Shown: positions 15,920-31,646 of the stretch, piece after piece
Layout: each line of letters begins with the position of its first letter
Numbering within the stretch: the first letter of the stretch is position 1
Assembly (NCBI GenBank): GCA_050696935.1
Contig: JBOGYU010000001.1
Coordinates: 1-41,042 of the forward strand
DNA length: 41,042 bases
Direction of reading: 5' to 3'
Origin: Solirubrobacteraceae bacterium
GTDB lineage: Bacteria; Actinomycetota; Thermoleophilia; Solirubrobacterales; Solirubrobacteraceae
Notes under the pieces: generated by a model
Database searches by the model: none
Seen by the model: the letters and a program-made list of their open reading frames with translations, nothing else
What the model was told of the DNA's origin: nothing
Program-made: the position numbers and the translations under genes

Positions 15920-16968
15920 CCGCTTCGGCCGAGGTAGGGGCGCGGATCCACGGGACGACCCGAGATGCGCACCTCGAAGTGCAGGTGCGGCCCGAGGCAG
16001 TGGCCGGTGCAGCCTGCGAACCCGACGAGCGCGCCGCGCGGCACGATGCCGCCGGTCGGTGTCGGCCCCAGACGCGACTGATGCGCGTAACACGTCGAGT
16101 ACGGCGGCGCGTGCTCGAGACACGTCAACACGCCATAGCCCGACACCGGTCCGCGCGTCGTGACGCGGCCGGTCGCAGCGGCCAGGATCGGCGTACCGGG
16201 GGGAACGGCGATGTCGATGCCCGCGTGCAGCCGTCCCCAGCGCATGCCGAACGGCGAGACCACCGTTCCCCTGACCGGCCAGGCGAGCTCGCCCCCACCG
16301 CGGGCCGCGGGCAGGTTCCCGCCGCCGCCCGAGATCGATCCCGCGTCCGTCTGCCAGCCGCGGGCGCGGTCGAGGACCCGGCGAGCATACGCCTCGGCGA
16401 CGGGGCCGGCGCCGTTGTATGCGCGCACGGCGCTGAACGTCCGGGCGCCCAGCGTTCCGTCTGCGCCATTGGTTCGCAGCAGCGAGCCGGCGGCCATCCC
16501 GGCGTCGAAGTCGTCGTACACCGAGGGATGCGGCGCCTGCGGGTGCGGGTAGCGGGCCGGTCGGCGGCCGCGCCGAAACGCCCACCTGTGCCTGTCCCAC
16601 GTTGACGGCGGGCCGTTGGTCACGTTGAACTGGAACGGCCCCGCACAGCAACCGGCGAAGTTGAGGGCTCGGTAGGTCGTCGGATGCGTCGAGAACGCGC
16701 TCTCCTCCTGGTGCACGGACGCAAGCACGAGCCAGTCGAGGCCAAAAGCCGCAGCCGACTGGCGGTAGATCGGCACGAAGGCCGAAGGGATCCCGTCAGA
16801 AGCGCTGTCCGTCCCGGGCCCGCCGCTGGACGACAGCAGCGCCAGCGGCGCCACGATGAGCAGCAGCAGGAAGAGCAGCGCGAGCGCCGCGGCCATGACC
16901 GCGCGCGGCAGGAGCGACCGGGCGCCGAGCACGGCGCCGGCGGCCTGGAGCGCGGGCACGGCCATCAT
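15916..16968 (-). CDS. bifunctional cell-wall hydrolase: lytic-transglycosylase-like (SLT) domain plus M23 metallopeptidase domain
   Basis: ATGATG at 16968 overlaps the VirB4 stop. It has an N-terminal TM segment. LASVHQEESAF...GPFQF looks like an SLT domain. HAGIDIAVPPGTPI...GHCLGPHLHFEVR matches M23 HxxxD/HxH. Confidence 0.9.
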   Translation of the reverse strand: MMAVPALQAAGAVLGARSLLPRAVMAAALALLFLLLLIVAPLALLSSSGGPGTDSASDGIPSAFVPIYRQSAAAFGLDWLVLASVHQEESAFSTHPTTYRALNFAGCCAGPFQFNVTNGPPSTWDRHRWAFRRGRRPARYPHPQAPHPSVYDDFDAGMAAGSLLRTNGADGTLGARTFSAVRAYNGAGPVAEAYARRVLDRARGWQTDAGSISGGGGNLPAARGGGELAWPVRGTVVSPFGMRWGRLHAGIDIAVPPGTPILAAATGRVTTRGPVSGYGVLTCLEHAPPYSTCYAHQSRLGPTPTGGIVPRGALVGFAGCTGHCLGPHLHFEVRISGRPVDPRPYLGRSG

Positions 16969-19640
16969 CGGTGGGCCTCCCAGCCCTCGGCTGCGAGCTG
17001 CTCGAGCGCACGCCACGCGTCGCCGTCGCAGGTGTCGAGTACCTGCGTTCGTCGCGGAAGGTCGTTGACCGGGTCCGACGTCGCCAGGCCGTACTCGGTC
17101 GGGCCAACCCGCAGAGCGATCGTGCCTCGCCCGCGCGTGCCGTTGATCCAGTAGGCCTGCGAGTAGGAGCGCTTGACGGTCTTCAGCCGGGCGATCGCGC
17201 GCACCTCGGCGTCGGAGAGGCGCGCTGCGTCCTTGATGTAGGCGAGTTCGTCCGGCGACTGGCGCAGGAAGAGCTGCTGGGTCGAGTTGCGCAGCAACGC
17301 CTTGCCGTACGGGCCGGCGAAGTCGGATAGCTGCTGGGAGATGGCGACCAGGAACAGGCCCAGGTGGCGGGAGCGGCGCGCGATCTCGTTGACCCACTCG
17401 CCGGTCGCCCGGCGCTCGACGAGCTTCCACGCCTCGTCGATCACCAGCATCGAGCGGCCGGCGAAGACTCCGCCGTTCGCCTCGCGAAGCCGCTCGAGCC
17501 CGCGGGACTCGATGCGGCGGGTCACGTGCTCGGCCAGGACGAAGAGCACTGCGGCCTGGAGCTCGCGCGGCACCTTCCGGGTGTCGAAGGCGACCAGTGG
17601 CGCGTCGGCGGGGACGGTGGTCTCCCGGTCGAGGAGATACGCGTAGGAGCCGTCGTCGACGAACGAGGCGATCCGCTCGCCGAGCGTGCGCAGTGCCGAG
17701 GCGACCTCCTCGGCGCCGGCCTTAGCTTCGTCGTCGGCGCGGCGGCGGAGCTCTTGGCGCAGCAGTGCCTCGCGCGGGACGATCTCTTCCCGGGTCGCGC
17801 GCGCGTAGACGGACCGGATGGCGACTTCGAGCAGGTTGCGCTCGAGCGCGTCGAGGCCGTAGGAGTCGTCGCCGGCACGGTGGTCGCCGACGAGCAGCGC
17901 GTGCAGCGCGACGAGGTAGCTGATCTTCTCGATCGGCGGGTTCGCCGGGTCCTCGACGTCCCACGGATTGACGGCGTGGTCGTCGCTGGATGCCCCGATC
18001 AACAGGTGCTGTGCGCCTGGCACGAGACGGCAGAGGAACTCGTAGTGGCCGGCGCGATCGAGCACGAATGCCTGCATGCCGTGGGCGAGCAGGCGCGCGA
18101 CGAGGACGTTGACGAGGAACGTCTTGCCGCCGCCAGATCGCGCGTTGATCAGCAGCGTGCCGTTGTCGTGGGCGGGATCGAAGGGATTGATGAGGGCGAC
18201 TTCGCGTCCCGGGTCCGTGAACGCGAACGGGATCCCGAGCGGCGAGCCGCAGCCCGTGCCCACCAGCGGCACGGTGTCGCCGACATGACGGGTGACGTAC
18301 TTGCGCGTCATCCGGGCCAGGTCGCGTCCGAGCGGCAGCGAGGACTGCCACAGCTCGAGCTGGCGGAGCTGTCCAGTGTTCACGCGGGCGTCGGAGGCGG
18401 CGATGACCTCGCGGGTAGCCTGCTCGACCGCCTCGGCGAGCTGGACCGGATCGGGATTTGGGCCGCGCTCGCGAATCGACTGGTAGATCGAGACCTCGAA
18501 CGCCGACGCTCGCTCGTGACCGGAGAGTTCCTTCAGCAGCTCGGAGAACTCCTCCTCCTGGGCGAGCATCTCGTAGTCGGGAGTGCGGCCGCGCAGCTCG
18601 GCGCCACGGTTGACGCCGAACAACCGCCGGTGCCGAGCCTTGAATCGAGCGCGCTCACGCAAGCGGTCGAGCGCATGCACGTACACGGTGAGGGTGAACG
18701 GCCGCTGGACCTGCATCGCGTCGAGCAGCCACCCGAACTCGGTCGCGTCGGGCAGCGTCGCCACATAGAGGGCCTGCTCGAGGTCGCGGTCGACGCGCAG
18801 GTGGCGCTGGTCGGCGCAGTCGATCGCCGAGCCCGCAACGAGCTCCCGCAGCGCATGGGCGGCGCGCGCCGCCTCGCGCGCATCGGTCACCGCGTCGAGC
18901 TCGCCGACGAGCTCAAGCCGCTGCTCCTGCGCGGCGGGGCGGCGATTGGGAGTTCGATCCGCCGCCGTCGGGTTGAATCGTCGCCAGAGGAGGTCGAGCA
19001 CTTCGGGGCCCGACAGCATGTGGGTGGAGAGGTCCAGCGCCTCGAGGTCACCGCGGATGGAGTCGGTCACGTGGAGTGACTCCTGCGCCAGCCGCCGGTG
19101 CGACTCAAGCGACCGCTCCAGCGCGCCTGCGGAAAGCCGAGGGCGGCGGACGCGAACGAGTTCGCGCCAATCGATCCGCACGCGCCGATCTGGGACGTGC
19201 GGAACGATGACGTAGTAGGCGATGTCGACGGCCGCCTGGGCCTGGGAGTGCCGATCGAGCGACTCGCACAACGCCGCGTGAAGCCGCCGCAGCGCCTGCG
19301 CACGCGCGCCCGCTCCATCACGGAGGGCCCGTTGGGCGCGCTCGGCCTCCGCCCGGCTGTGCTCCAGCAGCGTGGGCAGACGGACCGGGGCCGCCTCGAC
19401 ATAGAACTGCAGCGATTGCCCAGCTCCGAGCCGCCCGACCAGCTGGCCGAGGGCGTGGCCGACCTGCTCCCGCTCGGCTTGGGACATCACGAGCGGGTTC
19501 TTCGGGGTCACGCGCAGATACCGAACGAAGGCGCCCTCGCGCGTGATGAGGAGACCTTCGCGATCGAGGGCCTCGACCGCGCACAGCTCGCCGGCGTCCG
19601 GTAGCGCGACGCTGCGCTCCCGAAGTCTCAGACGTCCCAC
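16965..19640 (-). CDS. VirB4/TrbE/TraC-type conjugative ATPase
   Basis: GTG at 19640 overlaps the upstream stop (GTGGGACGTCTGA). 891 aa with Walker A (ARSGGGKTFLV) and Walker B (MLVIDEAWKL). The 149-aa N-terminal extension in ORF 16965..20087 is Arg/Gly junk that overlaps the upstream gene. Confidence 0.9.
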   Translation of the reverse strand: MGRLRLRERSVALPDAGELCAVEALDREGLLITREGAFVRYLRVTPKNPLVMSQAEREQVGHALGQLVGRLGAGQSLQFYVEAAPVRLPTLLEHSRAEAERAQRALRDGAGARAQALRRLHAALCESLDRHSQAQAAVDIAYYVIVPHVPDRRVRIDWRELVRVRRPRLSAGALERSLESHRRLAQESLHVTDSIRGDLEALDLSTHMLSGPEVLDLLWRRFNPTAADRTPNRRPAAQEQRLELVGELDAVTDAREAARAAHALRELVAGSAIDCADQRHLRVDRDLEQALYVATLPDATEFGWLLDAMQVQRPFTLTVYVHALDRLRERARFKARHRRLFGVNRGAELRGRTPDYEMLAQEEEFSELLKELSGHERASAFEVSIYQSIRERGPNPDPVQLAEAVEQATREVIAASDARVNTGQLRQLELWQSSLPLGRDLARMTRKYVTRHVGDTVPLVGTGCGSPLGIPFAFTDPGREVALINPFDPAHDNGTLLINARSGGGKTFLVNVLVARLLAHGMQAFVLDRAGHYEFLCRLVPGAQHLLIGASSDDHAVNPWDVEDPANPPIEKISYLVALHALLVGDHRAGDDSYGLDALERNLLEVAIRSVYARATREEIVPREALLRQELRRRADDEAKAGAEEVASALRTLGERIASFVDDGSYAYLLDRETTVPADAPLVAFDTRKVPRELQAAVLFVLAEHVTRRIESRGLERLREANGGVFAGRSMLVIDEAWKLVERRATGEWVNEIARRSRHLGLFLVAISQQLSDFAGPYGKALLRNSTQQLFLRQSPDELAYIKDAARLSDAEVRAIARLKTVKRSYSQAYWINGTRGRGTIALRVGPTEYGLATSDPVNDLPRRTQVLDTCDGDAWRALEQLAAEGWEAHR

Positions 19641-20014
19641 AGCGGCTCCCGCTCGGCGAGATGAGAGTCCGGACGCTCCTGCGTCGCCGCGGCCAGCTCG
19701 CAGCGGACGACGTAGCCGCGCGACGGCTCGCCCGCGCCCGGCAGGTAGCGTCGCGGGTGGCGCCAGTACCGCCACGCGGCCACACCGAAGGCCGCCACCG
19801 AGAACTCGAGACCCATGGCGCCGTACGACAGGGCGACCGGCATGCCGGCGCCGACGATCGAGACGAAGACCGTCACGCTCGTGGGGAACGGCGAGACGTA
19901 CACGCCGAACACCGCCGCGGCCGCACCCGCCACGCTCATCTGCACCCACTGGCCGAGCGAGAACGACCCGAGACGCAGCCTGGCCTCGAGGTGCTTGTAA
20001 GTCGGGTGGCGCAC
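19628..20014 (-). CDS. small membrane protein, PrgI/VirB3-like
   Basis: 128 aa, two to three TM helices. The N-terminus (..ARLRLGSFSLGQWVQM) resembles PrgI-family proteins. It sits directly upstream of VirB4, as VirB3 does. Confidence 0.55.
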   Translation of the reverse strand: MRHPTYKHLEARLRLGSFSLGQWVQMSVAGAAAAVFGVYVSPFPTSVTVFVSIVGAGMPVALSYGAMGLEFSVAAFGVAAWRYWRHPRRYLPGAGEPSRGYVVRCELAAATQERPDSHLAEREPLWDV

Positions 20015-20016
20015 GG

Positions 20017-21120
20017 CTACACCCCTGCTCCCCTGGCCGCGGAGCCCGCCGCCCCACCCCCGAAGCGCCCGGATATGCCTTCAGCACCGCGAGCCGTGCC
20101 GCCGGTGCGGACGGCCGCGCGGCCGTACACGAGCGCCCGCGCTGCAGTGTTGCCCAGCGAGGGGGTCAGCCCGGCGAGCATCGCTTGGCGGGCCAGGAGT
20201 TGCGGCGCCTTGAACGACACGAACAGCGCCGCGACGGAGACCCAGGGCTTGACGAGCTCGGCGCCGAACGAGCTCCTGAGGGTGAACGCCGACGCGCTCA
20301 TCACTGCGAAGATCGCGAAGCACAGCGCCCACACGACGGGCCAGAGCAGCACGCCGATGAGCAACTGAAGCCAGGTGCGAGCGAGCCATGAGGTCTCGGG
20401 CAGCGGCCAGAGCACGATCGCCAGGGGTGCCGCGACGTAGAGCAGTGCGAGCAGCGTCGCGATGACGATCTTGGTCACCAGCAGCAGCACCAGGAGCACG
20501 ACCGCGACGACGGCGGCGATAGCCCCGACGCCGAGCGGCGTGAAGCTCGCGACGGTGGCCGCGCCCAGGAGCTTCGCGAGCCCAGTCTCGAGCCCCGGCG
20601 CGTGAGTGATCCCGTGGGTGAGGTAGTTCGTCGCGATCGAGAGCGAGCCGAAGACCTCCGGGTAGATGGCGAGTGCGCCGGCCGCCATGCCGCCGCGCGC
20701 GAGCGCCTCGACCGCCTCATACGAGCCACCCGACGTGAACCCCGACGCGTAGTACCGGACGCCGGAGACCGTGAGGACGAGCGTGAACAGCGCCCAGGCG
20801 GCGACGCTGACGTACGCGCGCAGCTGGTTGAGCTCGCCGTAGTCGCCGCTGTTGGTGTAGACCGGAGTGGCGATCAGCCACTCCACCGCGCGGCGGGTGA
20901 CCTTCGCCTCGATTCCGAAGAAGGTCTTGAAGAAGAACTCGAAGACCTCGCCGACGAGATCGCCGGCGCTGGGCAGGGCGTCGAGCGGGTTCGGGACGCT
21001 GAAGCCCGACGTCAGGTCGATCTGGGCGTGAGCTGCCGGAGGCGAGGACATCAGCGCCATCACGCAACCGAGCCCCACGATCGCCGCGGCAACGGCACGC
21101 CTGCTTCGCGGCGACCGCAC
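20017..21120 (-). CDS. polytopic membrane protein, VirB6/TrbL-like channel component
   Basis: 367 aa with a signal-like N-terminus (..PPAAHAQ) and at least 6 hydrophobic helices. It lies between the pilin-like and VirB3-like genes. GTG start. Confidence 0.6.
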   Translation of the reverse strand: MRSPRSRRAVAAAIVGLGCVMALMSSPPAAHAQIDLTSGFSVPNPLDALPSAGDLVGEVFEFFFKTFFGIEAKVTRRAVEWLIATPVYTNSGDYGELNQLRAYVSVAAWALFTLVLTVSGVRYYASGFTSGGSYEAVEALARGGMAAGALAIYPEVFGSLSIATNYLTHGITHAPGLETGLAKLLGAATVASFTPLGVGAIAAVVAVVLLVLLLVTKIVIATLLALLYVAAPLAIVLWPLPETSWLARTWLQLLIGVLLWPVVWALCFAIFAVMSASAFTLRSSFGAELVKPWVSVAALFVSFKAPQLLARQAMLAGLTPSLGNTAARALVYGRAAVRTGGTARGAEGISGRFGGGAAGSAARGAGV

Positions 21121-21464
21121 TACGCAGCGACCGGCTTCGACAGCAGGACGACACCGACTCCCAGCGCGACGAGGCCGAGTACTCGGGCCGCACGCGCGTC
21201 ACCCGCCATGAAGAGGATCCCGCCCCAGATCAGGCCCAGCACGGAGAAGGCGCTCCCGACCGGGATCGTGTAGTCGGCGAGCCGGTCGATGAATCTCACG
21301 AACCGGGCGAATCCGCCGTTGCCCTGTGCTCCGCCACCCGCCGCGGCCCGTAGCGCGGCTTCTGCGGGTTCGGGCGCGACGAGCGCCGCGAGTAGCGTTG
21401 CGCCGACAACCGCCGCGGCTGCAGCAACGACGGGCGCCGCGTTGCGCTTCCTCACATCGCCCAT
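21120..21464 (-). CDS. VirB2/TrbC-like pilin candidate
   Basis: ATG at 21464 with GGAGG 8 nt upstream. 114 aa with a long signal peptide ending AEA, then two hydrophobic helices split by a short charged loop (..LIWGGILFMAGDARAARVLGLVALGVGVV..). Confidence 0.6.
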   Translation of the reverse strand: MGDVRKRNAAPVVAAAAAVVGATLLAALVAPEPAEAALRAAAGGGAQGNGGFARFVRFIDRLADYTIPVGSAFSVLGLIWGGILFMAGDARAARVLGLVALGVGVVLLSKPVAA

Positions 21465-21489
21465 CACGGAGACCTCCGGCTTCGTCGCA

Positions 21490-22182
21490 TCACATGAACT
21501 CGGGCGGTGCGTCGGCGGGCACCGGCGCAGGAGCGGCCCCTCCGCGACGGGCGGCAGGTGCTGGAGAGGGCAGACTCGGCGTCGCGGGCGCCGCGGGCGT
21601 TGCGGGGACCACCGGCCGCCGACGGGTCGGCACGTCGGGAGCAGGGCGCCCCGTCGACGACGAGTCGTCTCGACAGCATCTCTCCGATCGCGCGGGGCGC
21701 CGCGGCCGACGCGTGGACGTGTGCCGCCCGCGGCGTCGCCGGGCATCCTCGCGCGGCCGAAGGTTCCGCTTCGTCGCCTCCCTAGAACGAACCCGCGTCT
21801 GCCCCGACACCGACGACGAAGCGGCGGGCGCGCGTCGTTCGACGGGAGCTCGTTGCGCCTCGTCCTCTGAGCCAACGTCATGCAGCAGGAGAAGTGCCAT
21901 AGCAGCGGCGACCATCGCGGCCAGAAAAACGGAGCAACGAGCGACGAGGCCGGCCGCGAGTAGCCGGCGTCCGTCCGCATGGGATCGGCCACGGGGGAGC
22001 CGGTCGAGCGAGGCGGTTGCACCCGGGTTCCGCGGCGCACCGCCAACCTCAGCGAACAGGCTCGCCGCGTGCGCTGACGGCGCGTCCGTTCCGGCAGACC
22101 CGCGCCGATCCTCCGGCACAACGAAGATGTTCGGTCGCTCTACGGCTACGGCGAGCGCAAAGGTGTCAGCGGGTTCGGCCAT
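21490..22182 (-). CDS. hypothetical single-pass membrane protein with Pro/Arg-rich tail
   Basis: 230-aa ORF, one hydrophobic segment (LLAAGLVARCSVFLAAMVAAAMALLLL). It would be the first ORF of the transfer operon. Composition is only moderately gene-like. Confidence 0.35.
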   Translation of the reverse strand: MAEPADTFALAVAVERPNIFVVPEDRRGSAGTDAPSAHAASLFAEVGGAPRNPGATASLDRLPRGRSHADGRRLLAAGLVARCSVFLAAMVAAAMALLLLHDVGSEDEAQRAPVERRAPAASSSVSGQTRVRSREATKRNLRPREDARRRRGRHTSTRRPRRPARSERCCRDDSSSTGRPAPDVPTRRRPVVPATPAAPATPSLPSPAPAARRGGAAPAPVPADAPPEFM

Positions 22183-22577
22183 CGTCTACCCGTTGAGGAG
22201 GGAGCTAGGGGGAAACTGGCCCCGCGACTGTCGTCGGACAGGCCGCGCTCGGATCAGCTGCTCTCCGCCGCGCGACGCAAGCTCAACGCCGGCGACCTCG
22301 CCGTGTGACCATCAGCTGGAAGCAGCGACTGCCGACGTTTCCGCGTCCAGGCCGAGCGGAGTGTCCGCGCGACTGCCGGTCCCCGCCAAGCGCTGGAGGG
22401 GCCGCCACACGACGGCGGCGCCAGAGCCGCCCGCTGCCTTTCGCGCAACGCAGCAGTGACGGGACGACAACCTCTCATCCATCACTCGTCCGGCGCCGAC
22501 CGCGGCTTCGGACGTGGGGCGGTCAACGTCCGGGGTCGCGCCGGTACGGTGGGGCAGTGAACCTTCCGTCTCAATCG

Positions 22578-23522
22578 ATGGCGGCCAACACGATCTCACG
22601 GCTACGGCGGGTACCGCTTCGGGAGGTGTGGCAGCACGAGGCTCGTGGCTTCACCACCTGGCTGGAGCGGAACACGGACGTCCTAAGTGAGACGCTCGGC
22701 CTCGTCATCGATAACGTCGAACGCGAGCGCTCGGCTGGCAACTTCAGCGTGGATCTGGTGGGCGAGGACGCGGCCGGGAACCAAGTCGTGATCGAGAACC
22801 AACTCGAGCGCAGCGATCACGATCACCTGGGCAAGCTGATCACGTACCTGGCTGCATTCACGGCTAGGACGGCGATCTGGATCGTGGCGGACCCGCGCCC
22901 TGAGCATGTCGGCGCGATCACGTGGCTCAACGAGTCCGTCGAGGCGGACTTCTACTTGGTCAAGGTCGAGGCTGTCCGGATCGACCAGTCTCCAGCGGCG
23001 CCGCTCCTGACGCTGATCACCGGGCCGAGCGCCGCCGCCACGGAGGTGCGTGCACAGAAGCAGGAGCGTGCAGAACGCCACGACTTGCGTCAGGCGTTCT
23101 GGACCGGCCTGCTTGCCCGTGCTCGACCCTCGACGGGGCTCCACTCTGCCGTGTCCGCGAGCACCAGCACCTGGCTCGTCGCAAGTGCAGGGCAGCGGGG
23201 CCTCCTCCTGTGCTACATCGCGCGACAGCACGACGCGGCTGTGGCACTGGTGATCGATCGGGGCGACGCCGCTGAGAACGCCGCGCTCTTTGAGCGGATC
23301 CGACACGACCAAGAAGCCATCGAGAATGAGTTCGGCGGTCGACTCGACTGGGACCCCGCGGAAGGAAAGCAGCGTTGTCAGGTCGGCGCGAGGGTCTCCG
23401 CCGGTGGGTACCGCGACCCAGAGGAGAACTGGCCGGTCATCCAGGACAAGCTCATCGACACCATGGTGCGCTTTGAGCGCGTCCTCCGACCCCGGATCCA
23501 CGCACTCACGCTCGCGGACTGA
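22578..23522 (+). CDS. DUF4268-type protein with N-terminal PD-(D/E)XK nuclease-like fold
   Basis: ATG at 22578 (MAANTISRL). LREVWQHEARGFTTWLERN...FSVDLVGEDAAGNQVVIENQLERSDHDHLGKLITYLA...WLNE is the family signature as I recall it. The upstream 91 codons of ORF 22305..23522 are not coding. Confidence 0.75.
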   Translation: MAANTISRLRRVPLREVWQHEARGFTTWLERNTDVLSETLGLVIDNVERERSAGNFSVDLVGEDAAGNQVVIENQLERSDHDHLGKLITYLAAFTARTAIWIVADPRPEHVGAITWLNESVEADFYLVKVEAVRIDQSPAAPLLTLITGPSAAATEVRAQKQERAERHDLRQAFWTGLLARARPSTGLHSAVSASTSTWLVASAGQRGLLLCYIARQHDAAVALVIDRGDAAENAALFERIRHDQEAIENEFGGRLDWDPAEGKQRCQVGARVSAGGYRDPEENWPVIQDKLIDTMVRFERVLRPRIHALTLAD

Positions 23523-23965
23523 GGCGCCAGAGCTCCGAGATCGTCCACGACCCGCGAGGCGCGGCCCGGCCGGCATTGCCTGCGGAGACCGCAAAGCGGC
23601 AAAGCGGCAGTCTCGACCCTGCGCTCTTGGTCGGGGATATTGAGGGAGGATCTCGGGCGCGCGCCGCCAGAAACGCCCACTCGTCGCGGCGGGGGAGTCG
23701 GTGAAGCGGCTTTCGCTCGGCCCAGGGGACGACGATGTCATAGCGCGGACTCGGCGAGACTGCAGCGGTCTGCCGGTGGAGCACGGTGTGCCAGAGGGCG
23801 AAGGAGCGATTGGACGCAGCTGAATCCATCAGGGTTCGCCGAAACGCGAAGCAAGCCGATGCCCGCATTCTCACTGCGTCGGCGAAATGCTGGACGGATG
23901 TCCATTGCCGGGCATCGGGAGTCGGCCTAGGATCGCAGCTGGGCCCAAGTGCTCAGGGACTTTGA

Positions 23966-25063
23966 ATGCGGCTCTGTACCGCCTGCCTTCACATCGACGA
24001 CCGGACCATCGAGCACTGTCCTCGCTGCGGGGAGAGCGCGTTCGCGAGAGTGACCAAGAACGGGGACGTCGTCAGCGTTCCTGGCGAGGCAGGCATGCCC
24101 TGCCAGTGCTGTCTGGAGACGGAGCAGCAATTGCAGCTCCGCTACTACCGCCGAGTCCTGGGACTGCTGATCATGGACCGGGTCTGGGGCGAGGCTGGGT
24201 ACTTCTGCGGCCCGTGTCGTCGCAGGCACTTCGCCAAGAACATGGCCTTCACCCTCGTGTTCGGTTGGTGGGGCGTGATCGCGATGGTGTTCCGCAATCC
24301 CTACGCCATCTTGGTAAATCTCTGGGCGCTGTTCCGGCCGCCCTTTGGCGCCGGCGAGTTCGGCGCCATGAATGCAGACGAGATTCGGCAGGCGGCCGCC
24401 AGAGAGCAACAGCGCGAGCAGCGCCTGGCAGACGTCTATATGCGCATGCCAGGCTGGATGGAGACGCTGACCGAGGACGACATTACGCGAGTCCTCGCGA
24501 ACGTCGACTACTACGCGACGCTGGACGTCTCCCGCTCGGCGTCGCATCGCGAGATCAAGGCGGCTTGGCGTGCGCAGGTGAAAGCGCATCACCCTGATCG
24601 CGTCGGTGCGACAGGACACGAGCGAATCGTTGCGATCAACGACGCTTGGCAAGTTCTCGGGGACGAGCGCCTCCGCCATGCCTATGACCACCGCGAGGAG
24701 CTGCTTGGGTTCCTTCACGAGACGGAGGCCGTCGCATCGGAGTTCGACGAGCAGGACGCCGATGAGGACATGGCGATGGTCGTCGGGTGCGTCGAGTGCC
24801 GGCTTGCCTTTGAGTCCTTCGACGATGCCGCCGACCACGTCGATGCCGTGCACCCGCACGTCGACTACCACGACATCCTGGTTTCCCTCCTAGACGACGA
24901 GGACGCCGAGCCAGAGCGCGATCGCGCGTCGAACTCGCCGCGGTGGCGCTGCAAGGCGTGCCCACGGACCTTCAGTGACTATGACCTGGCCGTTCAACAT
25001 GCCGACCATGCGCATCCGGAACGAGTCACGGTCGATCCGAGAGCCGCGGTGGAGGCAATATGA
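23966..25063 (+). CDS. membrane protein with N-terminal zinc ribbon, central J-domain (HPD) and two C-terminal C2H2-type zinc fingers
   Basis: The zinc ribbon is CTAC..CPRC. The hydrophobic GWWG segment is FTLVFGWWGVIAMVF. The J-domain is DYYATLDVSRSASHREIKAAWRAQVKAHHPDR...INDAWQVLGDERLRHAYD. The two C2H2 fingers are CVEC..HVDAVH and CKAC..HADHAH. Confidence 0.85.
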   Translation: MRLCTACLHIDDRTIEHCPRCGESAFARVTKNGDVVSVPGEAGMPCQCCLETEQQLQLRYYRRVLGLLIMDRVWGEAGYFCGPCRRRHFAKNMAFTLVFGWWGVIAMVFRNPYAILVNLWALFRPPFGAGEFGAMNADEIRQAAAREQQREQRLADVYMRMPGWMETLTEDDITRVLANVDYYATLDVSRSASHREIKAAWRAQVKAHHPDRVGATGHERIVAINDAWQVLGDERLRHAYDHREELLGFLHETEAVASEFDEQDADEDMAMVVGCVECRLAFESFDDAADHVDAVHPHVDYHDILVSLLDDEDAEPERDRASNSPRWRCKACPRTFSDYDLAVQHADHAHPERVTVDPRAAVEAI

Positions 25064-25716
25064 GCCGATTCTGCTCTCATTGTGGTGAGCAGGTACGCGG
25101 CGATGATCGCTTCTGCGTTAAGTGCGGTGAGGAGATAAACGCCGGCGCCCAGCCGAATGACGTGAACCCTGGGTTTCGTGCGCCGGACCATCTGCACCGT
25201 CGCGCCGGCGGCTTCCTCGTTCGGCACGCGCGCGGACTCATGGCTCTCGCCGTCGTTGCTGCCATAGCGGTAGTGGCGGCTCTTTCCGGCTCGTCGAACG
25301 AGACAACTCCCGGTCCTGCCGACTCGGCGCCAGCGTCCGAGGTCGCCGCTGAGAAGGACCGCCAGCAGACAGGGCGGACGAAGGATGGCGCGGCGACGAC
25401 GACGTCCGAGGATCCTGCCGCTGACCGTGTCATCAAGGCCAAGGGTGCAGACGGCAAGACATACCGTTGCGACATAGGGATCATCGACCGCGTCAATGCG
25501 GCCAACGACCGTGTGGACCGACGAGAAGAGGTGTTGAAGGCTCGGCGTGCGGCGGTGCGAAGGCTCGAGAAGCAGTACCCCAACGGCGAAGCGCCCGGCG
25601 ATGTGGTCGACCGCTACGAGGATCTCCTCGCCCGCGCCAACGCCCAGGTCACATGGACAAACAAGGCAATCGACCAGTACAACCGGGTACTGCGCGACGC
25701 CTGCGACCCGGCGTAG
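25060..25716 (+). CDS. zinc-ribbon, single-pass membrane protein
   Basis: ATGA overlap with the upstream gene. FCSHCGEQVRGDDRFCVKCGEEI is a zinc ribbon. A TM helix (LMALAVVAAIAVVAAL) is followed by a charged helical ectodomain. Confidence 0.7.
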   Translation: MSRFCSHCGEQVRGDDRFCVKCGEEINAGAQPNDVNPGFRAPDHLHRRAGGFLVRHARGLMALAVVAAIAVVAALSGSSNETTPGPADSAPASEVAAEKDRQQTGRTKDGAATTTSEDPAADRVIKAKGADGKTYRCDIGIIDRVNAANDRVDRREEVLKARRAAVRRLEKQYPNGEAPGDVVDRYEDLLARANAQVTWTNKAIDQYNRVLRDACDPA

Positions 25717-25719
25717 CAC

Positions 25720-25944
25720 GTGCGGACCTCCGCTCTCTACGGCGCCGTCATGGCGCTCGCTGCCATCGCCGCCGTTGTGCTCGTCGGCGTTAGCGTTCAT
25801 GAGTTCGACTACGCCGCCGACCATCCCTACCGATACGGGCCCGCCAAGGTGATCGCCTGGACCGCTGGAGCCGGCGCCCTTCTCGCTATCGCGGTCGGCC
25901 TACTCGCCGGAGCGCTACTCCGCCAGGGCCACTCCTCGAGCTGA
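25720..25944 (+). CDS. small two-TM membrane protein
   Basis: GTG start 4 nt after the upstream stop. 74 aa with two hydrophobic helices. Confidence 0.5.
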   Translation: MRTSALYGAVMALAAIAAVVLVGVSVHEFDYAADHPYRYGPAKVIAWTAGAGALLAIAVGLLAGALLRQGHSSS

Positions 25945-26144
25945 CGCCGCCAGGGTCTCGCCGCTGCTCAAGCAAGTATCGGGTTGTCGCGCAAGGCGCA
26001 AGCCGGTTCGGACGCATACCGCCACGTGAGCGAACCCTGCTGGATGATTTGGTGGTGTTCGTCCGCCGCAGTCGCAATTGTTCGTCGAGGTTGCTTACGC
26101 TGAGCCTTCAGTCGTATCGACGGTGCTGACCGACCTCTCTATTC

Positions 26145-28865
26145 GTGGTTCCCGAGTCCCACAACGCTTCACTTGAGCGGGACGAGCTGATTGCTCGGAC
26201 GCTGCGGCCTGCGCGCAACGTCGTGCCGGTGCTCGGCGCCGGGATCAGCGAGGGAGCCGAGCTTCCGGGTGCGTTGCTGCTCGGCCAACACCTCCTCAAG
26301 GTCGGCGAGTTCGTCGACCGGAGGCGGCCGTCCGCCACCGCACTGTTCGACATCGTCGACGCCTTGGTGCCGGCGTGGCGGAGCGCCTGCTTGGGGGAGG
26401 CGGTCGCCAAGTTCGTCGCAGTCGAGCCCCCGACGACCAACCCGATGGCGCAGGCGCTCATCGATGTGCCGTCGCAGTTCATCGTCACCCTCAACTACGA
26501 CCTGCTGGTCGAACGGACGGCCGTGGCGGCCGGGCGGCCCGACCCCAGGGTGCTGGTCAACGTCCCGGCCGACCTTCGGGAAGCACACCGGTTGCTCGTT
26601 CGTGGCCCTTGGCCGCCGGACCGGCTGACCGTCCTTCACCTTCATGGCGTCGTGACAGCGCCGGAGACGATCGTTTTAGACAGCGACTCCTACCAGGACC
26701 TCGTCCGAAATCCTGACGTCCAGGCAGTGCTCAGCGAATTGGCGCTGCACCGTACGATGCTGTTCTACGGCACTACTCTCAACGAGACGTACCTTCTGGC
26801 AACGCTCCAGGCGCAGATCAATCGGGCTGAACACGTCCTGGTCTGCCGATCTGGGCAAGAAGGGGAGTTGACCGGCGGCCGGCTGTCGATTTCGTTCGCG
26901 CGCCACAGCATCCGGATCGCGACCGTCCCGACCTTCGATGACCTGCCCGGGCATCTCGCCCAGCTGAATCTGACTCGGGATCAGCCTGCGACCGGCGGCG
27001 CACGGACGGCCGGCTCGCTACCACCCGCCGGCCCATACATCGCGAACGAGTTCAGCGACCGACGCAGGCCGGTCAGCGACGAGGAGCGGATCTTCGCACT
27101 ACTCGGAGACGACGAATACGACAACCCCGCTGAGATCACCGAGGCGAACGTGGCAGCCGGGCATCGAACGCTGGTGCTCGGAGGAGTGGGGACCGGGAAG
27201 TCCGAACTGCTCGCCCATCTTGCTCGAACCAGCCGGCCCGACCGGCCAGGAGTGCTGATTCGTCTCGGCGATCAGAAGTTCACCGGAGGAAGGCCCGAAC
27301 GGGTGCTCGGCCGCTGGGCGCAAACGGGATGGAGCGCGAGCGGCGATGTCACCGTCACCGCCGACGCCATCGAAGGCGGGTCGATGCACTTCCTGCTCGA
27401 CGGCCTTGACGAAGTGCCGTCAGCCGAGCAACAAGCCGCTGCGAATCTGGTCGTCGACCTCGCTAACCGACTGCCGCAGCATGCGTTCACCGTTACATCC
27501 CGGCCGGTCGCCGCCGCCTCCACGCTAATCGACGCCACCATCGAAGGGCGCCCTGGCTGGGAAGTGCTACAGCTTGAGCCGAGCTCGGCTTGGCAGTCCC
27601 GGTACCTGACGCATCGCGGCGTCTCGTTCGAGGACTTGATGACCGCCCTGCCCGAGCTTGGGGATATGCCCGAGGTCCTCACTACCCCGTTCTTCCTCTC
27701 CCGGGTGGTCGACCTCTACTCAGAGGGCCGGCTCACGGGTCTGAAGGATCTCGGAGAGTTGCTCGCCGCGCTGATCGACACGCTGCTCCAACGTGAGGAG
27801 CCGTTGCTCACCCTCGATCCTGCGGAAGTCCGAGCCTGGCTCCACAGCGTCGCGCTTGCGGGGCTACTGGCAGGTCGTCGATCCTTGCTGGCGTACGAGC
27901 TCGACCGGTTTCCGCTGCCCGACGGCGCCGCCGGCAGCCCGCGGGAACTGGCGGAGATGCTCGTCCAGCGTCTGCTACTGGCCGAGCACGCTGGGGTGTA
28001 CCGATTCGCTCACAGGATTCTTGGCGAGCAACTGGCAGCCGAGGCGCTTGGCGACCGCGAACCCACCGCGGCACTGATGGACTGCCTCGTCCCTCGGCGC
28101 AGCGACGCGATCGCCGCGGTGCGCGAGGACGCGCTGGTCACGGTCACGCTCGTCTGCCTTCGCGCGGCCGATTGGCGACGGGCCGTCGCCGAACGCGACC
28201 CCCTGGCCGTTGCCGCAGCGACCCCGAACGACGCGAGCCCGCAGGAGCGCCGCCAGGCTGCCGAGCTGCTCTGGGGCGTCTACACCGAACGTGCGATCTG
28301 GATGAGGCAGCGGGGCACGTCTGCGCTGCTGGACCACGCGTCAGCCCTTGGTCGTCTGATCGACAAGGATCCCGAGTCGGAGATCGCCCGTCGGGTCCGG
28401 GCCGCAATCCACCCTGGTGAACGTGAGCAGCAGGGAAACGCAATCAACGCCTGGGTGCGAAGCCGCCCGAAGGGGTTCGTCGAGGACCTCCGAAAGGTGC
28501 TCGCCGACCATGGCCGCGACGGCGTGGTGCATCGCCAGGCCGCATCCGCCGCGTTAGACGGCGGCTACACCGAGCTCCTCGACGAACTTGTACAACTCGT
28601 CGAGACCACGCCCGATAGCGCGGTGCAGCAGGGCGCCGGGCTCGCCCTCGTGCAGCTACTCCCGGCGGAGCGGCGCCTCGATCTGGGGTTGCGGCTCATG
28701 CGCACGCAGGAAGCCGACCTGGTATTGACCCGTCTGGTCGCTGAACTGAGCCCGCGCGAGCTGATCCTGATGGCGGCGGCCTACGAAGGCGAAGACCCGT
28801 CTTGGGATAGACGGCTAAAGAGAAAGCTCGCCGAGGCGATCGCGAAGGTGGCCGAGGATGCCTGA
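26145..28865 (+). CDS. SIR2-like (SIR2_2) NADase domain fused to a NACHT/STAND NTPase and a helical-repeat C-terminus
   Basis: SIR2 blocks are NVVPVLGAGIS, FIVTLNYDLLVE and LTVLHLHGVV..IVLDSDSY, with the catalytic N and H present. Walker A (GGVGTGKS) is at 27180-27203. The NACHT-type Walker B (FLLDGLDEV) is at 27390-27416. About 400 aa of helical repeats follow. Confidence 0.85.
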   Translation: MVPESHNASLERDELIARTLRPARNVVPVLGAGISEGAELPGALLLGQHLLKVGEFVDRRRPSATALFDIVDALVPAWRSACLGEAVAKFVAVEPPTTNPMAQALIDVPSQFIVTLNYDLLVERTAVAAGRPDPRVLVNVPADLREAHRLLVRGPWPPDRLTVLHLHGVVTAPETIVLDSDSYQDLVRNPDVQAVLSELALHRTMLFYGTTLNETYLLATLQAQINRAEHVLVCRSGQEGELTGGRLSISFARHSIRIATVPTFDDLPGHLAQLNLTRDQPATGGARTAGSLPPAGPYIANEFSDRRRPVSDEERIFALLGDDEYDNPAEITEANVAAGHRTLVLGGVGTGKSELLAHLARTSRPDRPGVLIRLGDQKFTGGRPERVLGRWAQTGWSASGDVTVTADAIEGGSMHFLLDGLDEVPSAEQQAAANLVVDLANRLPQHAFTVTSRPVAAASTLIDATIEGRPGWEVLQLEPSSAWQSRYLTHRGVSFEDLMTALPELGDMPEVLTTPFFLSRVVDLYSEGRLTGLKDLGELLAALIDTLLQREEPLLTLDPAEVRAWLHSVALAGLLAGRRSLLAYELDRFPLPDGAAGSPRELAEMLVQRLLLAEHAGVYRFAHRILGEQLAAEALGDREPTAALMDCLVPRRSDAIAAVREDALVTVTLVCLRAADWRRAVAERDPLAVAAATPNDASPQERRQAAELLWGVYTERAIWMRQRGTSALLDHASALGRLIDKDPESEIARRVRAAIHPGEREQQGNAINAWVRSRPKGFVEDLRKVLADHGRDGVVHRQAASAALDGGYTELLDELVQLVETTPDSAVQQGAGLALVQLLPAERRLDLGLRLMRTQEADLVLTRLVAELSPRELILMAAAYEGEDPSWDRRLKRKLAEAIAKVAEDA

Positions 28866-30252
28866 TCCAGAGCTGATCGCGGCGGCGTGCAAGGCCACGA
28901 TCCTTTGGCGGCTCGACGTCCGAGCGGCCGCGCGGCTCAGTCGTCACGATCCTCCTGCTGCTGTGCGCGGCATCGCCGAGGCGATGCAGCAGGGAGCCGA
29001 GTGGTGGCACGTCATCGCGCTCACTTCCCACCTGACCCCAGAGGATCTCCGAAACGGGGGGCTCGACGAGGAGGTCATCCGACGAGTCGAAGCCACTCAA
29101 GCCGCCGCCTGCGCTCGCGAAAAACAAGATCCCGATGCCTTCGCCGACGCGGAGGATGAGCCGCCTCTCGAGCTCGCGCCGCCTCCGAACCTGACCGAGC
29201 TGGTGATGGGTACGCCTGAGGACACCGACGGGCCGCTGCTGCGCGGCCACCGGACCCTGTCCGGGCACGTCAACGACCTCGACGCGCAGCACCGCGCACG
29301 GCTCACGGCGCGGATCGCTGCCTGGTGGCCGGAGAAACCGTACGTCGAGACGATCACGTGGATCGATCATGGCACCTGGCGTCAGGAGTACGGGTCGGCG
29401 GCCTGGTTGGCGTACGCCTCGGCGCTCGGCCTGACAGTGACCTCCGAGCAATGGGCGCAGGTTGCGTCCTGCGGGGTCCTGTTCGACCCTCAGCGTCTTT
29501 GGCTGCGCGAGCGGTCCACCGTGGACGGACAGCTACGTGCCGCCGAGTTGCTCGCCGGCGTCGCGAACCCGGCGCGGTGGCTGGGTCTCTTCGACTGTTG
29601 CAAGGATCCGCTCGCCGAGCCAATCATGCAAGCCGCGTCCGACGCGCTCCGCGCCCATCCGTCTGTGCCGAGGTCAATCACGGAAAGCGAAGACCTCCGC
29701 GCGCGCGAAAAGGTCATCGGACGGCTCGTGGCCAACGGCCGCGCCGACCTGGCGCTGCGGCTGGCAGAGCAGCGCCCCGACCTCGAAGCCTCCTTTGATC
29801 GCAAGCTCGCAGAGCACGGTGACGCCGACGCGCAGGTCCGCCTTGCGAGCGGTCTCGTCGCCCGGGCGGCGGATGGCGAATCGCTCGTCCACGAGGATTT
29901 CGGGTGGATGGATGCCGTGGCGGACGAGCGGCTCCTGGGACCGTTGTTCGAGCTACTCGGACTGGTGTGGAGAACCAGCGACAAGCCGGTTCCCCGGGTC
30001 TCGTCCGGCAGCGGCCTGCATGACGTGACTAACCCGGTGATGGCGGCAATCAAGACCGTGGGCGGCCGAGCCGCTATCGATGGTTACGACGAGCTCCTCG
30101 CCCGCGGCGGTGACATGCGCTGGCTACGCCATCAGCGCGAAGAGATAGCGGCGTCCGCGCTTCGCATGGACGGCCTCGAGGCAGCGGAGGCTGCCGCGGC
30201 CGAAGCCAACATCCCTGTCCTGCCCGTCGTGGCGGAGAACGATCCGGTGTGA
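28858..30252 (+). CDS. hypothetical 464-aa alpha-helical protein, translationally coupled partner of the SIR2-NACHT gene
   Basis: Its ATG overlaps the upstream stop by 8 nt (ATGCCTGA). Codon usage is gene-like across the whole ORF. I recognise no motif. Confidence 0.7.
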   Translation: MPDPELIAAACKATILWRLDVRAAARLSRHDPPAAVRGIAEAMQQGAEWWHVIALTSHLTPEDLRNGGLDEEVIRRVEATQAAACAREKQDPDAFADAEDEPPLELAPPPNLTELVMGTPEDTDGPLLRGHRTLSGHVNDLDAQHRARLTARIAAWWPEKPYVETITWIDHGTWRQEYGSAAWLAYASALGLTVTSEQWAQVASCGVLFDPQRLWLRERSTVDGQLRAAELLAGVANPARWLGLFDCCKDPLAEPIMQAASDALRAHPSVPRSITESEDLRAREKVIGRLVANGRADLALRLAEQRPDLEASFDRKLAEHGDADAQVRLASGLVARAADGESLVHEDFGWMDAVADERLLGPLFELLGLVWRTSDKPVPRVSSGSGLHDVTNPVMAAIKTVGGRAAIDGYDELLARGGDMRWLRHQREEIAASALRMDGLEAAEAAAAEANIPVLPVVAENDPV

Positions 30253-30417
30253 CTCGGCTGGCGTCGACCCGCTCGATGAGGGCTGCCGCACTGGCTGCTG
30301 CGTCTCGCGCAAAGCGACAGTCGCGCTATAGCCCACCGGACCGCTCCCTGGAGTTGACCCGGTTTCGTGGACACCTGAGCGCTTGGGCCGCTGGGCCCGG
30401 GCAGGAAGGATGTGTTC

Positions 30418-30714
30418 ATGCCATCGAGTCGTCCCCCGTATTCGTCGGAGTTCCGGCGCCAGGCCGTCGAGCTGGTGCGCTCGAGCGGGTCGTCGATCCC
30501 GCAGATCGCCGACGAGCTCGGCGTCTCGCCGCAGTCGCTTAGGAACTGGGTCAAGCAGACCGGGTTGGACCGCGGTGAGCGCCGCGACGGGCTGACCAGC
30601 GACGAGCGCGAGGAGCTGCGCCGGCTGCGGCGCGAGAACCGCCGCCTGACCCAGGAGCGCGAGATCCTCAAGGCGGCCGCGGCTTTCTTCGCCAGGGAGA
30701 CCGATCACCGGTGA
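30418..30714 (+). CDS. IS3-family transposase OrfA (HTH)
   Basis: PPYSSEFRRQAVELV...IPQIADELGVSPQSLRNWVKQ...ELRRLRRENRRLTQEREILKAAAAFFA is the classic IS3 OrfA HTH plus leucine zipper. ATG at 30418 with AGGAAGGA upstream. Confidence 0.9.
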   Translation: MPSSRPPYSSEFRRQAVELVRSSGSSIPQIADELGVSPQSLRNWVKQTGLDRGERRDGLTSDEREELRRLRRENRRLTQEREILKAAAAFFARETDHR

Positions 30715-31646
30715 TGATGTGCTTCCGGCTGATCGACGCGAAGCGAGCACAGCATCCCGTCTCCCTGCTGTGCGAGGTGCTCGGCGTCAGCCGCGCCGGC
30801 TACTACGCCTGGAAGCAGCGGCCGGCGTGCGCGCAGCGGCGACGCGATGACGAGCTGCTGGGTGAGATCCGGGCCATCCATGACGAGAGCAAGGGCACCT
30901 ACGGCTGGCCGCGGATCCACGCCGAGCTGCGCCACCGCGGCACGCGCATCTCGCGCAAGCGTGTCGCCAGGCTGATGCGCCAGGGCGGGCTGTCGGGCAT
31001 GGTTCGGCGGCGCAAGGGCCGCACAACGGTCTCGGTCCCGGGCATCGCCACCGCGCCGGACCTCGTGCGTCGCGACTTCGCGCCGAGCGCGCCGAACCGG
31101 CTGTGGGTCGCCGACCTGACCGAGATCGCCACCTGGGAGGGCAAGCTCTACCTCGCCGTCGTCGTGGACTGCTTCTCGCGCCGCTGCGTCGGCTGGGCGA
31201 TGGCCGAGCACATGCGCGCCGAACTCGTCGTCGAAGCGCTCGAGATGGCGCTCTGGCACCGCCGCCCCGACGTCGGACTCGTTCACCACAGCGACAGGGG
31301 CGGCCAATACGTGTCGCTGATCTTCGGCCAGACCGCGCGCGCCGCCGGCATCGACATCTCGATGGGCGCCAAAGGCTGCGCGCTCGACAACGCCGTCTGC
31401 GAGGCGTTCTTCGCCACGCTCAAGAAGGAACTCACCCGCCGGCGCTCCTGGCCCACCCGCCGAGAGCTCCAGAGCGCCGTGTTCGCGTGGATCGAAGGCT
31501 GGTACAACCGCCGCCGGCTGCACTCCACGCTCGGCTACCTCTCGCCGCTCGACTACGAGAACAGAACTCTCATGACCGGCGGTGCCAGTCTCGCCGCTTC
31601 GCGGCTCGCGCCCACATCAGGGATGATCAAGGAGAAGGCTGCGTAG
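30711..31646 (+). CDS. IS3-family transposase OrfB (DDE/rve integrase core)
   Basis: HPVSLLCEVLGVSRAGYYAW...GTYGWPRIHAELR...NRLWVADLTEI...VVDCFSRRCVGW...VHHSDRGGQYVS...DNAVCEAFFATLKKE...YNRRRLHSTLGYLSP. Confidence 0.92.
   Translation: MMMCFRLIDAKRAQHPVSLLCEVLGVSRAGYYAWKQRPACAQRRRDDELLGEIRAIHDESKGTYGWPRIHAELRHRGTRISRKRVARLMRQGGLSGMVRRRKGRTTVSVPGIATAPDLVRRDFAPSAPNRLWVADLTEIATWEGKLYLAVVVDCFSRRCVGWAMAEHMRAELVVEALEMALWHRRPDVGLVHHSDRGGQYVSLIFGQTARAAGIDISMGAKGCALDNAVCEAFFATLKKELTRRRSWPTRRELQSAVFAWIEGWYNRRRLHSTLGYLSPLDYENRTLMTGGASLAASRLAPTSGMIKEKAA

Follow-up and report, generated by a model that had tools for sequence, protein, structure and literature searches.

Is chaperone recruitment used directly in bacterial immunity or in DNA-entry exclusion? 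The site of action and the substrates of Hsp70 are set by J-domain proteins, and the membrane-bound J-proteins of bacteria (DjlA, DjlB and DjlC) are few and poorly understood. The question is opened by a cassette of three genes, which we call A, B and C, in a stretch of 41,042 nucleotides (nt) from a Solirubrobacteraceae bacterium (assembly GCA_050696935.1, contig JBOGYU010000001.1, positions 1 to 41,042, forward strand); this whole stretch is referred to as the window. We propose, at a probability of roughly 45%, that the cassette is a mobile, translationally coupled operon of ~2 kb encoding a membrane-associated J-domain co-chaperone complex that recruits DnaK, with envelope-linked immunity or exclusion as its preferred function. 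A first-pass annotation of the window had singled out these genes; what it observed is confirmed, while its interpretation is supported only in part. The three genes, for which we use amino acids (aa) and transmembrane (TM) as abbreviations, are:

23966-25063, + strand: gene A, class-C J-domain protein of 365 aa, membrane-associated (open reading frame (ORF) and family conservation)
25060-25716, + strand: gene B, bitopic membrane protein of 218 aa (ORF)
25720-25944, + strand: gene C, small protein of 74 aa with two TM helices (ORF)

All three ORFs lie on the + strand exactly where the first-pass annotation had placed them, and both of its statements about their spacing agree with the junction sequences. 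At the A/B junction (aatATGAgcc), the A stop codon TGA (25061-25063) overlaps the B start codon ATG (25060-25062) in the ATGA reported earlier, and a GGAGG lies 6-10 nt 5' of the B start. At the B/C junction (TAGcacGTG), the B stop codon TAG ends at 25716 and the C start codon GTG follows at 25720 after a spacer of 3 nt. The gene calls of the source database shorten A to 337 aa and B to 158 aa; we prefer the longer starts because the N-terminal zinc ribbons that they include are conserved across the family. Pairwise ratios of nonsynonymous to synonymous substitution rates (dN/dS, with dS saturated) are 0.13-0.25 for A, 0.22-0.37 for B and 0.18-0.42 for C, and thus all three are constrained coding genes under purifying selection. 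A consensus promoter scan of the cassette region returned zero sites, and a terminator scan returned only two terminator-like matches, both on the minus strand within gene B and without excess over chance. Rfam gave nothing between 22000 and 27000. The spacers of 443 nt upstream and 200 nt downstream of the cassette are not conserved at other loci.

What kind of protein is A? Residue conservation was read from an alignment of 37 family sequences, with a 21-sequence alignment for the second ribbon, and the structure was modelled by AlphaFold2 with the family alignment (mean predicted local distance difference test score (pLDDT) 82). From the N-terminus, the model contains two beta-rich zinc ribbons, a helix, a hydrophobic region, a helical linker, a J-domain, an acidic disordered linker and two beta-beta-alpha units, which correspond to the following features:

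23975-24028, + strand: zinc ribbon 1, C4xxC7...C18xxC21; beta strands predicted, pLDDT ~89
24101-24217, + strand: zinc ribbon 2, knuckles C46xxC49 and C81xxC84 (alignment, AlphaFold2)
24239-24334, + strand: aromatic-rich hydrophobic hairpin, residues 92-123, TLxxGWWG...RNP...N, putative re-entrant anchor (hydropathy, conservation)
24374-24496, + strand: conserved helical linker, residues 137-177; helices predicted, pLDDT 86-94
24506-24688, + strand: J-domain, residues 181-241 (Pfam DnaJ PF00226)
24788-24853, + strand: C2H2 finger 1, C275-x2-C278-x12-H291-x4-H296, net charge -5 (spacing, AlphaFold2)
24950-25015, + strand: C2H2 finger 2, C329-x2-C332-x12-H345-x4-H350, net charge -1 (conservation, AlphaFold2)

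The J-domain is the part of A with the clearest assignment. As the first-pass annotation had claimed, it is canonical: its Pfam DnaJ score is 55.2 bits (cutoff 27.8), the match spans residues 181-241 and covers the whole model, and H209-P210-D211 is invariant in the 37 sequences. In Foldseek searches, the model of this domain superimposes on solved J-domains, including those of Thermus thermophilus DnaJ and CbpA and the DnaK-bound J-domain of 5nro, with a root-mean-square deviation of 1.2-1.8 Å and a probability of 1.00, and it has the four-helix J fold. By sequence and predicted structure, A is a bona fide class-C J-domain protein. It is not a class A DnaJ, for which the model TIGR02349 matches over the J-domain only (56.3 against 377.2 bits) and PF00684 and PF01556 are both absent, nor a DjlA, for which NF006948 reaches 22 of 162 bits and covers residues 181-217 within the J-domain. 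A relationship to the DjlB/DjlC-HscC type was likewise rejected, as the hydrophobic segment of A is N-terminal to the J-domain and no adjacent gene matches Hsp70. When the whole of A was searched by structure against the PDB and BFVD, only J-domains were retrieved, with no relative of the N-terminal module or of the fingers, and a PHROGs scan gave matches to the J-domain and to zinc ribbons only.

N-terminal to the J-domain, A carries what is probably a membrane-associated module. The first-pass annotation had recognized the N-terminal ribbon, whose cysteines (C4, C7, C18 and C21) are conserved in at least 90% of the family, but it overlooked the second, in which C46, C49, C81 and C84 are invariant in the 21-sequence alignment. 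In the AlphaFold2 model, a long beta-hairpin (strands 56-66 and 71-80) separates the two knuckles of ribbon 2, and a helix connects the second knuckle with the hydrophobic region. There, the four residues of the GWWG motif (G100-W-W-G103) as well as N111, P112 and N118 are invariant. The hydrophobic GWWG segment of the first-pass annotation is present, but it is not a full TM helix: Kyte-Doolittle values stay below 1.6 in every 19-residue window, and two short aromatic-rich segments (92-108 and 113-123) divided by R-N-P make up the stretch. Judging from these features, A probably does not span the membrane but is attached to it in a monotopic or re-entrant manner. Both flanks of the anchor would be cytoplasmic, where the ribbons have the reducing environment that they require and the J-domain has access to DnaK. 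The helical linker that follows is conserved as well, with R141, D156, Y158, P162 and W164 invariant.

C2H2 fingers are rare in bacteria. The two in A had been described as eukaryote-style, and this description fits their spacing and predicted fold but not DNA recognition, since the fingers are acidic. The spacing Cx2Cx12Hx4H is exact in 37/37 relatives, each of which has 1-3 fingers (the count among A relatives overall is 0 to 3). The ligands of finger 1 (C275, C278, H291 and H296) are invariant or nearly so, and W327, C329, C332, F336, H345 and H350 of finger 2 are invariant. AlphaFold2 predicts a beta-beta-alpha fold for both, with finger 1 spanning residues 273-295 (strands 273-275 and 280-282, helix 285-295) and finger 2 residues 327-349 (strand 327-329, helix 339-349), at a pLDDT of ~80-89. 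All Pfam C2H2 models stay below their gathering scores on A (Zf-C2H2_ZNF451_C, 19.5 against 30; zf_C2H2_ZHX on finger 1, 14.1 against 27). Among sequences in the PDB, the best matches of finger 2 are the ADR1 and ZHX1 fingers and are non-significant (E = 0.37-0.56). These sub-threshold matches point in the same direction as the geometry. A Ros/MucR type was rejected, given that a whole-protein Pfam scan found no ROS_MUCR at E <= 1. We conclude that the finger pair has classical zinc-finger geometry and is a putative zinc binder. All fingers are net acidic in the 37/37 relatives, and the region after the J-domain has a mean net charge of -21 over ~112 residues in the family; thus, protein binding is likelier than nucleic-acid binding.

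B and C would supply the membrane partners of A. The features of B are:

25072-25125, + strand: N-terminal zinc ribbon, C5xxC8...C19xxC22, predicted cytoplasmic (Zn_Ribbon_1)
25234-25293, + strand: single TM helix, residues 59-78, N-terminus inside (Kyte-Doolittle peak 3.1)
25429-25704, + strand: ectodomain, beta-hairpin 124-138 and antiparallel alpha-hairpin 139-172/180-214 (AlphaFold2, pLDDT 82-91)

The zinc ribbon followed by a TM helix in B, and the two TM helices in C, had both been proposed earlier and are borne out. Pfam Zn_Ribbon_1 matches residues 4-25 of B with 30.1 bits against a cutoff of 25, and the ribbon cysteines are invariant. The TM helix, modelled at residues 57-75 by AlphaFold2, is preceded by five K/R residues and followed by an acidic stretch, and a low-complexity linker joins it to the ectodomain, in which Y135, C137, Y207, N208, L211 and C215 are conserved. 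In the predicted model, C137 and C215 bracket the base of the helical hairpin and may form a disulfide, which would fit an extracytoplasmic ectodomain. A structure search with B gave no significant match; its top hits, AcrA and MexA among them, are generic helical hairpins (E >= 0.33). A zinc-binding anti-sigma factor was considered for B and rejected, as NF052375 matches with 17.6 against 100 bits and only over the TM helix and the low-complexity linker. In C, hydropathy places the helices at residues 5-27 and 49-67, with a loop of ~20 residues between them. Two loci have a shorter B of 161-163 aa that keeps the ribbon and the TM helix (L003 11068-11559 and L026 2472-2957; other loci are likewise given by number). 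The ectodomain sequence of the short B differs in L003, while the B of L026 was judged by length alone. From these sequences, variation in the system appears to be greatest in the surface-exposed part of B.

Are the three genes a unit, and does this unit move? Full-length relatives of A number ~49 among 5.8 billion clusters and are all metagenomic or from metagenome-assembled genomes (MAGs); those with a name are Solirubrobacterales from soil. B has 18 relatives. In the GTDB set with one genome per species (185,579 species), we found 5 loci only, all in MAGs of Solirubrobacterales, Solirubrobacteraceae or Conexibacter. The gene order recurs, as the first-pass annotation would predict: B directly follows A in 12/12 distinct loci, and C is recognizable downstream of B in 11/12 and intact in ~9. 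When the window is compared with other loci, DNA homology sets in at 23957-23975; its far end lies at 25907-25944 in L001/L002, L007 and L010, the loci for which the alignment runs from end to end. No flanking sequence is common to the window and the other loci. These sharp edges without a shared flank argue that the cassette is a discrete mobile unit of ~2 kb, and they lend good support to the earlier suggestion of acquired cargo. In plasmid and phage collections, tblastn with A gave matches to the J-domain only; on actinobacterial plasmids, these matches fall in a heat-shock operon (DnaK-GrpE-CbpA-CbpM-ClpB) and in an unrelated J-protein. Among IMG/VR viral contigs, a scan retrieved zero relatives of the cassette.

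The membrane module reaches far beyond the cassette. Residues 1-140 of A, searched against 1.84 billion representatives, retrieved 238 clusters that share a core of CxxC, a beta-hairpin, GYxCxxC and TLxxGWWG followed by P and N, with CxxC...GYxCxxC conserved across 113 module relatives. No Pfam or NCBIfam model covers this module. A J-domain is carried by 37 of the 148 module relatives listed among the 238 clusters, after the module in 29 and before it in 8. Two of the 10 relatives scanned against Pfam (P0140 and P0167) carry SPFH/Band_7_1 with the module at their C-terminus, which suggests a general membrane-targeting device that is not specific to J-proteins. Paralogues of A that lack a J-domain are found in Solirubrobacteraceae and metagenomes (L012 9267-9851, L017 4812-5417 and L015 3367-3906). 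They consist of the module and one acidic C2H2 finger (194 and 201 aa) or of the module alone (179 aa), and have no B-like or C-like neighbours at these three loci; the paralogue in L012 lies ~2 kb from an ArdC-like anti-restriction gene.

At a distant locus, L018, a 255-aa protein with module and J-domain and without fingers is overlapped by the gene of a TM protein, whose C-terminal domain is homologous to the B ectodomain (hhalign probability 94.7%, E = 5.6e-8). The A-B pairing is thus older than the fingers and older than C. The B counterpart in L018 has no N-terminal ribbon, and instead of a two-TM protein the third gene there (6348-6593, + strand) encodes a soluble, UPF0547-like zinc-ribbon protein of 81 aa; the ribbon may have been transferred to a gene of its own. 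Next to the more distant proteins with module and J-domain (L019, L020 and L021), no B-like or C-like neighbours were found.

In which company does the cassette travel? In the window, its neighbours are:

Window (family scan): gene for a single-stranded DNA-binding protein (SSB)
2058-8247, - strand: complete type I restriction-modification (R-M) system, HsdR 2058-5045, HsdS 5042-6271 and HsdM 6268-8247
8319-9074, - strand: DUF5131 gene, after the type I R-M genes
10315-22121, - strand: conjugation module with Replic_Relax, type IV coupling protein (T4CP), SpoIIM-like protein, M23 peptidase, VirB4/TraG-like ATPase and TrbL
22305-23522, + strand: PDC-S11 candidate defence gene, DUF4268, with a weak NucS-like match (PADLOC, 402 bits)
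From 26145, + strand: gene with SIR2_2 (49.6 bits) and a NACHT-like region (sub-threshold, 25.2 against 26.7), 906 aa
28858-30252, + strand: 464-aa ORF overlapping the stop codon of the SIR2_2/NACHT-like gene; no Pfam, NCBIfam, PADLOC or PHROGs match
30412-31646, + strand: IS3-family element, HTH_Tnp_1 ORF followed by rve integrase ORF

The cassette had been placed between a conjugation operon and a SIR2-NACHT gene, and this is broadly so, except that the PDC-S11 gene intervenes on the upstream side. The SIR2_2/NACHT-like gene starts 200 nt downstream of the cassette on the same strand, and from their sequences it and the following ORF (26145-30252) look like a two-gene SIR2-STAND (signal transduction ATPases with numerous domains) system with an uncharacterised partner. 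Several ORFs in the conjugation module have no family match; two of its ORFs (10315-11919 and 11363-14020) overlap by ~550 nt, so that one start is probably wrong. Similarly, the PADLOC alignment of the PDC-S11 gene starts at residue 95, which probably places its true start 3' of the listed GTG. The claim that the cassette differs from the backbone in codon usage is correct in direction, but the contrast is modest: GC content at third codon positions (GC3) is 0.74-0.80 in the cassette and 0.83-0.97 in many genes of the window, but the neighbouring cargo is equally low (0.78-0.79) and some genes of the conjugation region and the type I R-M system have 0.76-0.85. The IS3-family element forms the right edge of a cargo block of lower GC3 (22305-30252).

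We surveyed 12 distinct loci for markers within 10 kb, without a background rate. Markers of mobile elements or defence are present in 12/12 of these loci and defence-type genes in 8/12, and the association with mobile or defence contexts that had been inferred from the window thus extends to every locus. Neighbours include:

L009: Gabija, TrwC
L010: DUF4041-T5orf172, PDC-S48, SMC-like ATPase
L003: TIR (PDC-S59/S66), Schlafen-like gene, integrase
L007: TrwC, Fic, type IV restriction enzyme, integrase
L005: HerA
L024: patatin, AAA_16, PLDc
L025: T4CP and excisionase directly upstream, Schlafen-like gene
L001, L006, L026: insertion sequences

L008 and L009 are two contigs of one MAG (MFD04944.bin.2.43) that carry the same cassette and a TrwC relaxase and diverge beyond the relaxase. 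Gabija genes (GajA/GajB) are present in L009 only and not in L008, where B appears frameshifted; the difference between the contigs suggests a strain-level exchange of cargo at one hot spot. No neighbour matches an Hsp70 family in any locus with the three-gene cassette. PADLOC-DB v2 recognizes the flanking genes (PDC-S11 and SIR2-type models) but has no family with a match to A, B or C at E <= 1; the earlier statement that the cassette resembles no described defence system therefore holds for this collection.

How might the cassette work? We infer that A is anchored at the cytoplasmic membrane face, that B is oriented with its N-terminus in and its C-terminus out, that A, B and C form a complex and that housekeeping DnaK is recruited to it. 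In this model, the two Cys4 ribbons and the GWWG/RNP aromatic hairpin would together form the module that holds A in place, and the HPD-containing J-domain would recruit DnaK in its ATP state and trigger hydrolysis. In J-proteins, the J-domain triggers ATP hydrolysis and locks DnaK on a client that is placed by the non-J parts. In the cassette, DnaK would be locked onto a protein held nearby, and the likely holder of this client would be the acidic C2H2 pair of A, which in that role would bind proteins as an adaptor instead of reading DNA; alternatively, the cytoplasmic parts of B and C may hold it. B would expose its zinc ribbon to the cytoplasm and its cysteine-bracketed alpha-hairpin to the outside of the cell, and C would be a small two-helix membrane partner. 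DnaK may be the executor, which remodels a membrane complex or an incoming protein, or it may be a guarded host factor. More speculatively, B would be the outside sensor and C a candidate membrane effector. The cassette would be carried as accessory cargo in hot spots of Solirubrobacterales that correspond to defence islands or integrative and conjugative elements (ICEs). The last step, an output in envelope-linked immunity or exclusion, is speculative and a tentative choice; it is favoured by the neighbourhood and by the precedent of bNACHT25 for DnaJ/DnaK (PMC12169576).

Several observations weigh against this proposal as a whole. The association with defence is drawn from only 12 loci and has no background rate for comparison, and none of the three genes has a PADLOC model. 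For an essential effector, it is odd that C is incomplete or lacking in 2-3 loci (truncated in L024, absent from L005); A, too, is damaged in places, by a frameshift in L010 and a truncation in L005. The B ectodomain has no informative structural relative. In L018, the neighbours are PASTA, ClpX-like and DprA genes with no obvious defence or mobile setting, which raises the possibility that the ancestral role was ordinary membrane proteostasis. A more specific version of the proposal, in which the cassette is a new system against phages or mobile elements that uses a private membrane-tethered J-protein to harness or guard DnaK at the envelope, is doubtful on its own; here, the surface hairpin of B would sense the attack, and the acidic fingers or C would deliver the response.

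Other functions would account for part of the same data. The conjugation genes that adjoin the cassette at several loci (the type IV secretion system (T4SS) operon in the window, TrwC in L007, L008 and L009, T4CP and excisionase in L025) would be expected if it were a housekeeping component of ICEs, either bringing DnaK to the membrane for assembly of the conjugation machine or unfolding of its substrate, or serving in entry or surface exclusion. The surface-exposed domain of B, which recalls exclusion proteins, and the J-less paralogue near an ArdC gene in L012 would also fit. Yet the cassette is never within a T4SS operon and is separated from that of the window by a candidate defence gene, there is no conjugation gene within 10 kb at L001, L003, L005, L006, L024 and L026, and the type of relaxase varies by locus (Replic_Relax or TrwC), so that the cassette is not bound to one backbone; we therefore consider this function unlikely. 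A general module for membrane proteostasis or envelope stress, only incidentally located in variable regions and working in the manner of DjlA, a membrane J-protein that modulates a membrane signalling protein together with DnaK, has a similarly low probability. The combination of module and J-domain is widespread with varied neighbours, the A-B-like pair of L018 sits among ordinary genes, the fusions to SPFH/Band_7_1 suggest membrane organisation, and DjlA, DjlB and DjlC are established as membrane co-chaperones (PMC8215388). Such a role is difficult to reconcile with a distribution as patchy as 5 loci among 185,579 species representatives, with the sharp mobile boundaries of the cassette and with defence or mobile markers in 12/12 loci.

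Two further explanations concern the genes at the 3' end. C, with 74 aa and two TM helices, would be suited to a small membrane toxin restrained by A, B and DnaK, and a cassette that is always on mobile DNA could stabilise its element by addiction; chaperone-dependent tripartite toxin-antitoxin systems, to which PMC13069673 refers, are known and provide a precedent. This is improbable, because C is the least-retained gene of the three, A and B persist without it, which is a poor fit to a role as antidote only, and the A-B pair of L018 has no C-like gene. It is highly improbable that the cassette serves specifically to assist the SIR2-NACHT gene next to it, with A as a private J-protein akin to the DnaJ of bNACHT25. 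That gene is only 200 nt away on the same strand, and bNACHT25 needs the J-domain activity of DnaJ (PMC12169576). However, in none of the other 11 loci is the cassette followed by NACHT or a relative of it (L001 has a large but unrelated gene downstream), and homology ends at the stop codon of C. An adjacency confined to 1/12 loci argues against a partnership.

The co-chaperone complex with a function in envelope-linked immunity or exclusion remains our preferred interpretation. The cassette contributes a portable membrane module outside any Pfam family, which is present in 238 clusters and was repeatedly joined to J-domains; a bacterial J-protein with C2H2 fingers of classical geometry; and conserved membrane partners, with all of these in one discrete unit that is mobile between defence islands and ICEs. 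Because the host DnaJ/DnaK machinery mediates phage sensing by a bacterial nucleotide-binding leucine-rich repeat (NLR) protein, a mobile J-protein in defence islands offers a concrete handle that can be mutated (HPD to QPD). The hosts of the cassette are uncultured. If the function in immunity is correct, the GWWG zinc-ribbon module would be the hallmark of a wider class of membrane J-proteins that has so far gone unrecognised; if the role is ordinary proteostasis, the cassette would still represent a new family of membrane co-chaperones.

How does this design compare with known systems? DjlA, DjlB and DjlC are established co-chaperones that work at the membrane (PMC8215388). In Escherichia coli DjlA (TerB-TM-J), as predicted for A, the J-domain is on the cytoplasmic membrane face and C-terminal to the anchor, and both proteins are presumed to use housekeeping DnaK (PMC8215388; PMC10410713). 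Unlike DjlA, A has no TerB domain, uses zinc ribbons and the GWWG hairpin as its putative anchor, carries C2H2 fingers, and is encoded with two conserved membrane partner genes in a mobile unit. DjlB and DjlC resemble A as membrane-bound class-C J-proteins and are thought to chaperone membrane proteins; however, their anchor is C-terminal and their genes lie beside that of their own Hsp70 (HscC), whereas in A the anchor precedes the J-domain and no Hsp70 match is nearby. Among eukaryotic proteins, Jjj1/DNAJC21 is a soluble J-protein of ribosome biogenesis with an N-terminal J-domain and two C2H2 fingers. The Jjj1 architecture has been listed as yeast-only (PMC10410713). Jjj1/DNAJC21 and A both combine a J-domain and C2H2-type fingers in one polypeptide, but A is membrane-associated, has acidic fingers and shares significant sequence similarity in the J-domain only; the combination probably arose by convergence. 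For bNACHT25, the DnaJ/DnaK cycle, including the J-domain activity of DnaJ, is required for phage sensing (PMC12169576). This system and the cassette both tie the DnaJ/DnaK cycle to a defence-island setting; by contrast, bNACHT25 relies on the host DnaJ, and the pairing of the cassette with a NACHT-like gene is confined to the window. LITAF/SIMPLE has a membrane-inserted zinc ribbon with a hydrophobic segment between its two knuckles. In A, zinc knuckles are similarly joined to a segment that may dip into the membrane, and both termini would be cytoplasmic; but a beta-hairpin lies between the knuckles, the hydrophobic hairpin follows the second one and there is no Pfam match. We found this architecture described nowhere in the literature covered, which did not extend to the Barriot et al. 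2020 survey of J-proteins in bacteria and phages. In other words, the cassette is built on the familiar chassis of a J-protein, to which it adds a new membrane module, a finger adaptor, conserved partners and mobile packaging.

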